Positions 13,699-16,518 of a DNA stretch of 16,518 bases are shown here, in pieces (position 1 is the stretch's first letter; every line of letters begins with the position of its first letter). Origin of the DNA: a virus (taxonomy: Duplodnaviria > Heunggongvirae > Uroviricota > Caudoviricetes). The notes beneath the pieces were generated by a model, which was not told the origin of the DNA, did not search any database, and worked only from the letters and a program-made list of their open reading frames with translations. Made by a program: the position numbers and the translations under genes. The stretch lies in the IMG/VR virus record IMGVR_UViG_2526164609_000012; one strand, 5' to 3'.

Positions 13699-13959
13699 AT
13701 GGCGACGTTACGTGAACTGATTATCAAAATTGTAAGCTTCCGGGGAACTCATATTGACGCGTTTTTCAGGCGCGCGTCATCGGCGGCGCATACGAACGCT
13801 CGTGGTTTGATAACGGTTGATTTATTTTGTTGCACAGAGGCGATCGCCAGGCAGGTACCGGAGGCGGGCTCTGAAGTACTGAGTAGCGTGATCGCGTCAG
13901 GCCGCGAAGTACTGACTCGGGGATTAATTGCAGGTGATGATGTACTGACCCGGGAATGA
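13699..13959 (+). CDS. hypothetical ORF in the tape-measure position; possibly a 5' remnant cut off by the IS66-family element
   Basis: 86-aa ORF with a good RBS directly after the chaperone pair, where a tape-measure gene about 2-3 kb long is expected; the sequence is not recognisably tape-measure-like. Ends just before the IS66-family element. Confidence 0.3.
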   Translation: MATLRELIIKIVSFRGTHIDAFFRRASSAAHTNARGLITVDLFCCTEAIARQVPEAGSEVLSSVIASGREVLTRGLIAGDDVLTRE

Positions 13960-14093
13960 CTCCGGGCTGATTCAGGTTCTTATTCGCTGTCAGCCCGCGT
14001 GGTTGCTGGTCTGGCTCATTTCCTGCCGTCAGGAGTTCAACTCCCGACTGCAGGTTATGGCCCGGTGCACGAACACCTGACGGCAGGTATCAC

Positions 14094-15695
14094 TCACCCG
14101 GAGAAGGTAAATCCCTCAAGAGGCAGCAACTCTGCCAGTCGCTCCTCCGGCCACTCCGGCAGACGCATCAGGACGTCTGTCAACCAGGCATGCGGCTCCA
14201 GACCGTTGCGTTTCGCGGTTTCCAGCAAGCTCATTATTTGCGCGGCGCGTTCTCCCGCCATCTGCGAACCGGCGAACAGCCACGATTTTCTGCCCAGAAC
14301 CACGTTTTTGATGGCCCGTTCACACACATTATTATCCAGCGGCACCGCACCATCTTCCAGGAAGCGGCTCAGTTCCACGCGATGAGACAGCGCATAGGCA
14401 ATGGCTTTGTGTAATGCCTTTCCCGGAGAACATTGCGGTTCCTGCTCTTCAAGCCATGACCACAGTTCTTCCAGTATCGGACGGGCATAACGCTGTCGCC
14501 ACTGGCGGATTTTTTCCACGGGGCGGCTACTGATCTTCTTCTCAAGACGGTACAACCCCGCGATTTTCTTCACGGCTATGGCAGCCCGTGGATCTTTACT
14601 GATTTTATACAGGTCGGCGAAGCCCCTGCGGGCATGGGCCCAGCATCCGGCCAGCGTGATCTCCGGCACTTTGTTTGCCAGAGTCCGGTATGCTTTATGT
14701 CCGTCGACAACCAGCGTCCCGCCCCAGCCCTGAAGCCAGTTTTCAGGATACTCATGGCTACGTCCGGTCCGGCAGTCGAAGCACACAACTGACGGTCCCG
14801 TCCTTTCTCCACTGACGTATGCCCACTGATAACCGGAGCAGGATTTACCGCCTTTCTTCGTGTTCAGGATCTTCAGGGTAGTCTCATCTGCATGCACCAC
14901 CGGACGGTTTATCAACTCGCGATGGAGTAACGCCGCCAGGGGAGATAATGCGGCACCCGCCGCGCCAACCATGTCAGCCATCGAACTGACGGGCAGCCCG
15001 ACATCTGAACGGGCAAAGACCTGTTGCTGGCGATACAGAGGCAGGTGGTCACCGTATTTATTGATGATCACCTGTGCGATGACTGATGGCTCAACGGCAC
15101 TTTTCGGGAGGATATGTGCCGGCATTTCACCGCTGAACACCTTCTGGCAACAGGGACAACTGTATTGCGGACGGACATAACGGTTCACCACAAAGTGAGC
15201 GGGAATATACTCCAGCTTTTCACTCACCGCATCGCGGATATAGTGCAGCGGCTCGTCACATTCAGGGCAATGGTCAGTGTCCGGCTGGATAATTTTTTCC
15301 ACCCGTGGAAGATGAACCGGTAAGGGTTTGCGTATCGGGCGTGAACGGGACGCTTTTTCATCTTCTTCAGGGGATTGCGGGAGCAGTTTATCCAGATGTG
15401 CGGTAAGCGCGGCGATATCGGCATCAACATCCTCTTCGAATAGGGAGCGTTGCATACCAGCCAGCGTTTCACATTTTTTTCCGAAGCGCTGTTGACGAAC
15501 CAGTTTCAGCATTTCTTCCAGAAGCTGGATGCGCCGGCTTTTCTCCAGTAATTCCCGCTCTTTTTCGGCATTCTCCGACATGACTTCTTGTACCATGGCA
15601 AGTGCCATAGCACGCAGTTTTTCGATGTCATTCGTGGTGTTGAGAGCGGAGATATCCATACAGGGGAGTATACCACTCCAGATACGGATATTCAT
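14094..15695 (-). CDS. IS66-family transposase (TnpC / Orf3)
   Basis: 533-aa ORF with N-terminal coiled-coil/leucine-zipper-like region, Cys cluster (CPECDEPLH...CPCCQ) and DDE-type core (VVHADETTLKIL...LVVDGHKAYRTL...AGCWAHARRGF) characteristic of IS66 TnpC. Confidence 0.9.
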   Translation of the reverse strand: MNIRIWSGILPCMDISALNTTNDIEKLRAMALAMVQEVMSENAEKERELLEKSRRIQLLEEMLKLVRQQRFGKKCETLAGMQRSLFEEDVDADIAALTAHLDKLLPQSPEEDEKASRSRPIRKPLPVHLPRVEKIIQPDTDHCPECDEPLHYIRDAVSEKLEYIPAHFVVNRYVRPQYSCPCCQKVFSGEMPAHILPKSAVEPSVIAQVIINKYGDHLPLYRQQQVFARSDVGLPVSSMADMVGAAGAALSPLAALLHRELINRPVVHADETTLKILNTKKGGKSCSGYQWAYVSGERTGPSVVCFDCRTGRSHEYPENWLQGWGGTLVVDGHKAYRTLANKVPEITLAGCWAHARRGFADLYKISKDPRAAIAVKKIAGLYRLEKKISSRPVEKIRQWRQRYARPILEELWSWLEEQEPQCSPGKALHKAIAYALSHRVELSRFLEDGAVPLDNNVCERAIKNVVLGRKSWLFAGSQMAGERAAQIMSLLETAKRNGLEPHAWLTDVLMRLPEWPEERLAELLPLEGFTFSG

Positions 15696-15701
15696 TATTT
15701 T

Positions 15702-16094
15702 TCACTGAGTTAGCAGTGTATTTTGCGTGTTTTCAGGGCGCAGTTCAGGTTCATTCTGCCAGACCCATTTCGTCAGGTCATGTCCCTTAACCTGCTGCCA
15801 GTCAACACCGGCAATCAGCCAGTTAAACTCGTCGGGAGTGAGGTGCCAGGCAGCGTCATTTGCACGTGGCCAGCGGAAGCTGCCTTTGTGCAGACGGCGG
15901 GTACACAACCACACCCCGTGTTTATCCCACCGGAGAACTTTGATACGCGAACGGGCTTTGTTAACAAAGACGAAGGCGGCTCCCTCATGCCATGTCGACC
16001 GGAGTTCATCCTGTATATACTGCGTCAGTGAGTCGATGCCCCGGCGCATGTCAACAGGTTTAATTGCGATGAAGACATTATCAGGACTGAGCAT
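15702..16094 (-). CDS. IS66-family TnpB (Orf2)
   Basis: Conserved Orf2 pattern (NVFIAIKPVDMRRGIDSL...IKVLRWDKHGVWLCTRRLHKGSFRWP...WHLTPDEFNWLIAGVDW). Start set at the internal ATG (MLSPDN...) because the longer ORF-track start at 16193 would run into the adjacent IS3-family terminal sequence. Stop is 6 nt before the tnpC start. Confidence 0.8.
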   Translation of the reverse strand: MLSPDNVFIAIKPVDMRRGIDSLTQYIQDELRSTWHEGAAFVFVNKARSRIKVLRWDKHGVWLCTRRLHKGSFRWPRANDAAWHLTPDEFNWLIAGVDWQQVKGHDLTKWVWQNEPELRPENTQNTLLTQ

Positions 16095-16167
16095 ATTTGA
16101 GTGCCCTGAAGACATCGGTAAGTTGTGACAGCTGACAGCACATCCGTACTCCACCGGGAAGGAAGAG

Positions 16168-16518
16168 TGAAGTGGCACACTGAATTTGGCCACCTGAACA
16201 GAGGTGATATGCTCACCTCAGAACAACACAGGTGCTCCAATGAAAAAAAGAAATTTTAGCGCAGAGTTTAAACGCGAATCCGCTCAACTGGTTGTTGACC
16301 AGAAATACACGGTGGCAGATGCCGCCAAAGCTATGGATGTTGGCCTTTCCACAATGACAAGATGGGTCAAACAACTGCGTGATGAGCGTCAGGGCAAAAC
16401 ACCAAAAGCCTCTCCGATAACACCAGAACAAATCGAAATACGTAAGCTGAGGAAAAAGCTACAACGCATTGAAATGGAGAATGAAATATTAAAAAAGGCT
16501 ACCGCGCTCTTGATGTCA
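16168..16518 (+). mobile_element. left end of an IS3-family element (IS911-like), continuing past the window
   Basis: Begins TGAAGTGGCACACTGAATTTGGCCACC (TG-initiated terminal repeat); OrfA starts 72 nt in. Identification as IS911-like is from memory of the OrfA sequence. Confidence 0.65.
16240..16518 (+). CDS. IS3-family OrfA (HTH transposase subunit), 3'-partial at window edge
   Basis: ATG at 16240, open to the window end: [93 protein letters not shown], an HTH plus leucine-zipper OrfA as in IS911/IS3. Absent from the ORF track because it has no stop in the window. Confidence 0.75.

Follow-up and report, generated by a model that had tools for sequence, protein, structure and literature searches.

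The question raised by this locus is why the tail module of a prophage ends abruptly in insertion sequences (ISs), and whether the distal tail genes have been deleted or merely moved. The window (the whole stretch of DNA that was analysed, 16,518 nt) appears to be the left part of a defective lambdoid prophage with an HK97-type head and a lambda-type tail, and the host of the prophage is a Shigella genome of the S. dysenteriae/boydii group. In sequence comparison, the prophage is ~99% identical to E. coli Sp12-like prophages. The Sp12-like lambdoid prophages of the E. coli O157:H7 strain Sakai, like related E. coli prophages, have an intact tail module and match the window at 98.9–99.6% identity over gp17, V, G, T, and the 33 nt with which the tape-measure gene begins. 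They carry an uninterrupted 1080-aa tape-measure gene with M, L, K, I, and J directly downstream, whereas the window has IS1 in V and a hybrid IS in the tape-measure gene instead. The closest genomes are CP026807.1 and CP045784.1, from which window positions 266–16167 (15.9 kb) differ only at 11443 and 16130. We propose, with a probability of about 0.72, that the tape-measure gene was cut by the IS66-family element ISEc49, which later recombined with a second copy truncated by IS911, the predicted outcome being an inversion.

The IS1 in the major tail gene V (768 bp; 11799–12566, plus strand; Pfam InsA and DDE_Tnp_IS1) is a further IS strike on the same tail module, outside the region with which the original prediction dealt. 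Its ends and a 9-bp duplication, TAAATTCCT, are read directly in the window sequence, and the IS1 bases are absent from V of the intact relatives.

As the original prediction had pointed out, an 86-aa ORF (13699–13959, plus strand) occupies the place expected for the tape-measure gene; it follows G and T (PF06222 and PF06223). The ORF is chimeric. Its first 11 codons (MATLRELIIKI; 13699–13731) are the 5′ remnant of the tape-measure gene, and the other 75 are read-through codons of the non-coding, IRR-proximal part of ISEc49. It is neither a complete known gene nor a tape-measure protein, which would have ~1000 aa and TMP domains, and it has no Pfam family match. The comparison with intact prophage relatives that had been suggested locates the break to the nucleotide: in locus L003 of NZ_CP046259.1, where the tape-measure gene spans L003 positions 9450–12692, identity to the window stops at L003 9482, corresponding to window position 13731, and ISEc49 begins at 13732. 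The exact 86-aa protein is found on 715 contigs, annotated only as "hypothetical protein [Shigella]", and it is not a real gene product family. Since the junction ORF is present on hundreds of Shigella contigs, the insertion of ISEc49 in the tape-measure gene is regarded as old and vertically inherited.

The adjacent segment (13732–16167, minus strand) corresponds to nt 331–2766 of a 2766-bp ISEc49/ISSfl3-like element of the IS66 family and comprises the right inverted repeat (IRR), tnpC, tnpB, and the last 87 nt of tnpA; the full length is defined on loci L001, L002, and L004. Identity over these 2436 nt is 99.5–99.7% to copies annotated in RefSeq as "IS66-like element ISEc49 family transposase", a value that refers to those copies and not to the ISfinder reference entry. 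All ISEc49 matches begin at 13732, inside the 86-aa ORF, and not within 13960–14093, where the end of the IS66-family element had been sought. The IRR (13732–13771, minus strand) reads GTAAGCTTCCGGGGAACTC..., terminal GTAAGCTTCCGGGGAACTCATATTGAC; the terminal repeat is of the GTAAGC type, and the IRR agrees at 24 of 40 positions with the other end of the intact element in L004.

The minus-strand tnpB and tnpC genes, both expected from the original prediction, are intact. TnpC (533 aa; 14094–15695) has the DDE domain, zinc finger, and leucine-zipper region of an IS66-family transposase (DDE_Tnp_IS66, PF03050, 7.8e-90; zf-IS66, LZ_Tnp_IS66, and DDE_Tnp_IS66_C, PF13005, PF13007, and PF13817), and databases name it "ISEc49 family transposase" or "ISSfl3 orfC". 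The accessory protein TnpB (130 aa; 15702–16094, with its ATG at 16094; coordinates mapped from annotated L001) matches TnpB_IS66 (PF05717) at 6.4e-35. The tnpA gene had been described as lacking, with 73 nt between the start of tnpB and the IS3-family end at 16168. The spacing is right, but the gap is filled by tnpA: mapping the annotated intact ISEc49 onto the window identifies codons 82–109 plus the stop (28 codons and the stop, 87 nt; 16081–16167, minus strand), overlapping tnpB. Intact tnpA has 330 nt (L004 12383–12712), and the break in the window falls exactly after codon 81. The missing nt 1–330 of ISEc49 comprise the left inverted repeat (IRL) and the first 243 nt (81 codons) of tnpA, and no other tnpA or ISEc49 5′ sequence is present anywhere else in the window. 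The tnpA-tnpB-tnpC order is complete in the copies of the relatives. In the window only the IRR is present, with IS911 at 16168 in place of the IRL; having one end only, the element is predicted to be unable to transpose.

The IS3-family element that begins at 16168, likewise anticipated in the original prediction, is IS911. Only its first 351 nt lie within the window (16168–16518, plus strand), comprising the IRL, TGAAGTGGCACACTGAATTTGGCCACC, and 93 of the 100 codons of orfA, which starts at 16240. Chromosomal Shigella copies match this sequence at 100% identity, and the copy annotated as IS911 in Shigella phage Sf6 matches it at 97.4%. The inverted repeat starts with 5′-TG, and OrfA (16240–16518) contains HTH_Tnp_1 (PF01527; 3.9e-14), as in IS911 of the IS3 family. 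IRL and IRR of IS911 agree at 25 of 40 positions, and at another locus (L008) a full IS911 is accompanied by a 3-bp TGG duplication.

In the nearest relatives, the prophage copy of ISEc49 (copy A) is intact, without IS911, and is a simple insertion with the 8-bp target duplication of the IS66 type, TCAAAATT. In L004, at the same insertion site, a second TCAAAATT adjoins the opposite end of ISEc49, whose tnpA and IRL are whole; the window retains the left copy only (13724–13731). In CP026807.1 and CP045784.1, the intact ISEc49 is followed by a remaining tape-measure ORF of 1086 aa and then by the tail genes M, L, K, I, and J. The IS66-family insertion itself deleted nothing. The idea that IS activity cut the tail module is borne out in that the IS66-family element destroys the tape-measure gene and the IS3-family element cuts the IS66-family element, but the relatives show insertion without deletion.

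Another ISEc49 (copy B) is located elsewhere in the chromosome, with a yagK/yfjJ-like gene of the aerobactin island on one side and the phn operon on the other. Copy B starts at ISEc49 nt 331, its IRL and the first 243 nt of tnpA being lost at an IS911 end, at the same nucleotide as the junction in the window. At least five related genomes contain it (UYIT01000003, CP045784.1, CP026840.1, CP026842.1, and CP026825.1), with the same ISEc49/IS911 junction and A at 16130. All five records align gap-free to the window; the alignment reaches 16518 in four of them and, past the junction, 16228 in CP026840.1. Position 14691 distinguishes all five from the window, and 15432 distinguishes most of them. 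The IS911 of the donor locus (copy B, L048) is itself cut at ~nt 885 by another IS66-family element, orfB ending after 114 aa, with no target duplication visible at this locus and no second flank.

The alleles of 40 ISEc49 copies separate the two sides of the window. Among the copies examined, those without IS911 all have G at 16130 and those with IS911 all have A; the A, which changes Pro to Leu in the tnpA remnant, is specific to copy B. The window has T at 14691 and C at 15432, both of the copy A type, and A at 16130 and the IS911 flank, both of the copy B type. Because of these marker SNPs, we interpret the window as a hybrid of the two copies, a call based on three informative SNPs and two flanks only. 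Furthermore, the identical junction and the linked 16130 A belong to copy B, with copy A alleles on the other side, and therefore it is most probable that the IS911 junction did not form in the prophage itself. The successive IS insertions or deletions of the original prediction hold insofar as IS activity explains the abrupt end, but the IS911 junction most probably came by homologous recombination with copy B.

The proposed history has three steps. The first, directly visible, is the transposition of ISEc49/ISSfl3 into tape-measure codons 9–11, with duplication of TCAAAATT. The second, seen in the relatives, is the truncation of copy B by an IS911 end and its gain of A at 16130. The third, to which the allele pattern points, would be RecA-type homologous recombination between copies A and B over the ~2.4 kb that they share, with a crossover in 14692–16129 (15433–16129 if the donor had T at 15432), joining the proximal half of the prophage to the IS911 side of copy B. 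The consequence would be a chromosomal inversion of ~2.5 Mb, by which the remainder of the tape-measure gene, together with the distal tail genes, was moved to the other breakpoint and not deleted. To the right of the window, IS911 would then be expected to continue to ~nt 885, followed by another IS66-family element, with genes of 126, 115, and 512 aa, and by phnG to phnP.

An inversion rather than a deletion is predicted because copies A and B are inverted relative to each other in two complete relatives. In CP045784.1, tnpC of copy A is on the minus strand at 3.930 Mb and tnpC of copy B on the plus strand at 1.465 Mb; in CP026840.1, the copies are inverted too. The window alone does not tell whether the distal tail genes were deleted or moved, and it is the inverted copies in the two relatives that predict relocation. 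The orientation in the source ancestor is assumed from these two relatives of a lineage that rearranges often. In Shigella, the recombination of inverted copies of one IS leaves a hybrid IS at both breakpoints of an inversion; in the window one breakpoint is seen, and the inversion is predicted rather than observed. IS-copy inversions are very frequent in Shigella, especially in S. dysenteriae: of 114 inversions reconstructed across an E. coli/Shigella set, 103 fall on Shigella branches, and 33 separate two S. dysenteriae genomes (PMC8072062).

Exchange of ISEc49 flanks is also seen in other members of the lineage. The draft contig DAJVTM010000122 (L041) runs straight through ISEc49 and is a hybrid of the reciprocal type, with the tape-measure flank, intact tnpA, G at 16130, A at 14691, and the yagK flank. 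A further locus, L040, has a third flank combination and thereby shows that recombination among ISEc49 copies is recurrent; in all, no fewer than four combinations of flanks are seen.

The best-surviving alternative, which we nevertheless consider unlikely, is that copies A and B pointed the same way in the source ancestor and that recombination excised the DNA between them, with loss of the remaining tape-measure sequence and the distal tail genes, in line with the original prediction. The tail module does end at the hybrid IS in the window, and rearrangement in Shigella lineages is frequent enough to turn a copy around. In addition, the L041 genome has a single ISEc49 copy with hybrid flanks, implying a history that included the loss of one copy in at least one genome and not just inversion. 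However, the copies are inverted in both complete relatives in which both have been located, and the two loci are ~2.5 Mb apart, so that essential genes would have been lost unless earlier rearrangements had brought the copies close.

Less probable still, at well under one chance in eight, is an assembly chimera, in which the prophage side of copy A was misjoined to the IS911 side of copy B and the real genome resembles CP026807.1. The switch lies inside a long near-identical repeat, the shared 2.4 kb being >99.9% identical; differences from CP026807.1 and CP045784.1 are confined to 11443, 16130, and the IS911 flank; and the combination of the hybrid junctions is in no other record searched. 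Against a misjoin, both IS1 and the full ISEc49 repeat were assembled through, probably with long reads, which normally span 2.4 kb, and natural recombinants of the same copies exist (L040 and L041). The independent insertion of IS911 into tnpA of the prophage ISEc49, with the remainder of ISEc49 and of the tail module, tape-measure gene included, lying beyond the window, is the simplest reading of the window alone and fits the break exactly between tnpA codons 81 and 82, but it is highly improbable. IS911 would have had to strike the very nucleotide at which it cuts copy B, facing the same way, and a G-to-A change at a distance of 37 nt, seen nowhere else but in copy B, would have had to arise independently. 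In addition, copy A of the nearest relatives is without IS911, and a version by gene conversion from copy B fails on the absence of any ISEc49 5′ part beyond the IS911 of copy B.

A search of genome_contigs, viral_contigs, and metagenome_contigs with the exact 35-nt ISEc49/IS911 junction gave no match; both junctions are absent from the 5,426 complete E. coli genomes and from phage records; and no record was found for the junction-spanning ORFs of 71 and 163 aa. Look-ups of the 116-aa head-closure protein, the exact TnpC, and the 114-aa IS911 OrfB fragment returned only parental arrangements among the matches listed. A predicted truncated TnpA (81 or 82 aa) was considered as a marker of in-situ IS911 insertion. 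Both sequences exist, but on draft contigs that end at ISEc49 nt 329–335, at many unrelated loci, and one of these loci carries an intact element in a complete genome. These ends most likely reflect assembly forks from truncated copies in the same genome, such as copy B in Shigella, which starts at nt 331, and a remnant of nt 1–343 beside a cdiA fragment in E. coli, and we dropped these contigs as evidence for or against the finding. The IS911 beside an IS66-family tnpB in E. coli JSWP006 is unrelated, the element being ISEc23 and the site a different one. An IS insertion hot spot in tnpA was also considered and found no support.

A broader reading, which we regard as possible but doubtful, is that ISEc49 copies act as recurrent, possibly reversible recombination switches in the S. 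dysenteriae/boydii lineage, the window marking a replichore-scale inversion of ~2.5 Mb. If so, the prophage would be split in two, with phn genes beside phage head and tail genes, and the inversion might be useful for marking the lineage or might alter replichore balance.

The finding is routine Shigella IS biology, and its importance beyond annotation is little. For annotation, a window ending in an IS cannot be read as a deletion, and what looks like a nested IS junction can have arrived by recombination with another copy instead of forming on the spot; the hybrid junction could serve as a strain marker or as a misjoin flag for the source assembly. For the prophage, the events amount to IS-driven genome decay: IS1 in V, an IS66-family element in the tape-measure gene, and then IS–IS recombination parting the two halves would have grounded it irreversibly.

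Upstream of position 13699, Pfam identifies a phage tail assembly chaperone (PF06222) and tail protein T (PF06223); therefore, a tape-measure gene is expected at 13699. The ORF list instead places an ORF of only 86 aa there (13699–13959), for which a Pfam search returns no match. Beyond it, on the minus strand, lie a 533-aa ORF (14094–15695), the IS66 transposase TnpC (DDE_Tnp_IS66, 7.8e-90), with the IS66 zinc finger, leucine-zipper, and C-terminal elements, and tnpB (15702–16094, as mapped from an annotated intact ISEc49; TnpB_IS66, 6.4e-35). OrfA of an IS3-family element (HTH_Tnp_1) starts at 16240. 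Thus, the ORFs, Pfam domains, and coordinates bear out the original prediction that the tail module ends in insertion sequences, and the 73-nt spacing between tnpB and the IS3-family element is correct.

The IS66-family element is ISEc49. In a megablast search of complete E. coli genomes, 13732–16167 is 99.5–99.7% identical to elements that carry the annotation 'IS66-like element ISEc49 family'; in some Shigella records, the transposase goes by the name 'ISSfl3 orfC'. The end of the element lies at 13732 (GTAAGCTTCCGGGG...) and not within 13960–14093, where it had been suspected. Intact ISEc49 is 2766 bp long, and the window holds nt 331–2766. The annotated intact copy carries tnpC, tnpB, and a 330-nt tnpA, with a 14-nt tnpA/tnpB overlap. 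When this copy is mapped onto the window, the final 87 nt of tnpA fall at 16081–16167, so that tnpA, reported as lacking, is truncated but not wholly absent. The 361-nt non-coding stretch from the right inverted repeat (IRR) to the tnpC stop contains three direct repeats of ~11 nt, GA(A/T)GTACTGA, at 13873–13950 with 32–34 nt spacing, which may be sites for transposase binding or for regulation of ISEc49.

Prophage relatives with an intact tail, including Sp12 of O157:H7 Sakai, match the window at 98.9–99.6% identity up to 13731. The sole gap is 768 bp absent from the relatives, which in the window is an IS1 within the major tail gene. The tape-measure gene of NZ_CP046259.1 spans 3243 nt (9450–12692 of the extracted locus, L003). 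Because the match stops 33 nt inside this gene, the 86-aa ORF is, as judged from sequence, a chimera in which 11 tape-measure codons read on into the IRR region of ISEc49. The collection has the exact junction protein in ~993 blocks, S. boydii Sb227 (CP000036) among them; 715 contigs, from S. flexneri, S. dysenteriae, and S. boydii, carry it under the annotation 'hypothetical protein'.

ISEc49 is complete in all 10 loci among the matches listed for the 86-aa protein. Directly after it, a 1086-aa ORF with tape-measure domains is present in nine of these loci and split in two in one; at L010, no ORF is called at this position. Tail genes M, L, K, I, and J come next. In a relative with intact ISEc49 at the same site (L004), TCAAAATT stands on each side of the element, an 8-bp duplication, as expected for the IS66 family. 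Because the relatives hold complete copies, the target is duplicated, and the tail genes follow directly, the sequences indicate that the ISEc49 insertion is old and simple and removed nothing. In L004, the 1086-aa ORF (12757–16017, outside the window) re-enters the tape-measure frame from within the left inverted repeat, and its predicted product has IS-encoded residues in place of the first 11 tape-measure residues. In Sb227, ISEc49 has a short deletion just past the equivalent of window position 16167, and one predicted 210-aa ORF, which has a TnpB_IS66 domain, extends over the positions of both tnpB and tnpA.

The sequence from 16168 is IS911: the copy annotated in phage Sf6 matches it at 97.4% identity, and copies in Shigella chromosomes at 100%. 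CP026807.1 and CP045784.1 differ from window 266–16167 only by a 1-nt indel at 11443 and an SNP at 16130, and their ISEc49 in the tape-measure gene (copy A) is without IS911. With the exact TnpC sequence of the window as the query, more copies of ISEc49 were located in these genomes. One of them, copy B, has a yagK/yfjJ-like gene, DUF7828 genes, and aerobactin genes (iucA onward) on one side; on the other, IS911 is piled up with a second IS66-family element (126, 115, 512 aa) and phnG to phnP. This phn operon begins at phnG and has apparently lost phnC to phnF. Four records give an ungapped alignment of copy B to the window over 13732–16518, and CP026840.1 gives one that stops at 16228. The ISEc49/IS911 junction of copy B is that of the window to the nucleotide. 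Its IS911 is cut at ~nt 885 by another IS66-family end. In relatives (L048, L050, L058), this mobile-element pile lies between the phn operon and the aerobactin island, in the order IS66-family element (126, 115, 512 aa), IS911 cut at ~nt 885, ISEc49 nt 331–2766, yagK/yfjJ-like gene, DUF7828 genes, and IS3-family elements. A third copy (nt 386–2766; L046, L055, L057) lies between two inverted copies of another IS66-family element (139, 116, 530 aa) and a further IS66 element, and this whole group is on the upstream side of gene V in a second lambdoid prophage.

In an allele table of 40 ISEc49 copies, 16130 is A in all copies with the IS911 flank and G in all IS911-free copies covering the site, E. 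coli copies included. Copy B has A at 14691 in all cases and T at 15432 in most; copy A of the window's sublineage has T and C. The window reads copy A flank, 14691 T, 15432 C, 16130 A, copy B flank. On these markers, its ISEc49 is a single-crossover hybrid of copies A and B, with the exchange placed between 14692 and 16129. Independent evidence for this is a draft contig (DAJVTM010000122) with the reciprocal arrangement, in which the yagK flank leads to 14691 A, 16130 G, an intact tnpA, and the tape-measure flank; another contig (L040) has a third flank combination. Therefore, ISEc49 copies recombine in this lineage.

A crossover between two repeats in inverted orientation flips the DNA that separates them. 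In CP045784.1, tnpC of copy A is on the minus strand at ~3.931 Mb and that of copy B on the plus strand at ~1.466 Mb; the two copies are likewise inverted in CP026840.1. With this orientation, the crossover would invert a ~2.46-Mb segment. The distal tail genes would be relocated beside the yagK-like gene rather than deleted, and IS911, the second IS66-family element, and phnG would follow beyond 16518. Searches did not recover the source genome. A deletion is possible if copies A and B were direct in the immediate ancestor, as is a misjoin across the 2.4-kb repeat. An independent in-situ IS911 insertion is very unlikely, as it would have to hit the same nucleotide and carry the same linked SNP. 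Gene conversion from copy B is excluded, as the 5′ part of ISEc49 is missing beyond the IS911 of copy B.

Both of the truncated TnpA forms predicted, 81 and 82 aa long, are in the collection, on E. coli and Shigella draft contigs (L024–L035) that end at ISEc49 nt 329–335 and are held in databases as 'partial' TnpA. These ends fall at many unrelated loci, one of which has intact ISEc49 in a complete genome. Known truncated copies include Shigella copy B, from nt 331, and an E. coli nt 1–343 remnant beside a cdiA fragment. The ends are best explained as assembly forks from truncated copies in the same genome rather than by a shared insertion; these contigs have no bearing either way on the IS junction of the window.

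The prophage is heavily degraded. A complete 768-bp IS1 (11799–12566; insA, 11854–12129; insB, 12048–12551) with a 9-bp duplication, TAAATTCCT, splits major tail gene V into ORFs of 118 aa (N-terminal part) and 134 aa (C-terminal part). Sb227-like relatives have this IS1 at the edge of a deletion that took out the entire head module and reaches pocR and the cob genes. In the window, the capsid and portal regions are broken into several ORFs. Compared with an intact relative, the head genes (5363–9933) look fragmented: the capsid-protease gene, a single 645-aa gene in the relative, is split into 132- and 535-aa ORFs, and the portal region into 166-, 286-, and 353-aa ORFs. Positions 9088–9467 contain an internal repeat with 88% identity at an offset of ~160 nt.

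The original prediction is thus partly supported: IS elements did end the tail module, but ISEc49 first inserted in an old, simple event and two IS copies then recombined; nested in-situ events with a local deletion were not the route. Inversions and pseudogenisation driven by IS elements are a hallmark of Shigella. One comparative study placed 103 of its 114 reconstructed inversions on Shigella branches and 33 between two S. dysenteriae genomes, and it lists IS66 with the IS families that are specific to certain Shigella lineages (PMC8072062). The event in the window is of a known kind and involves known elements.
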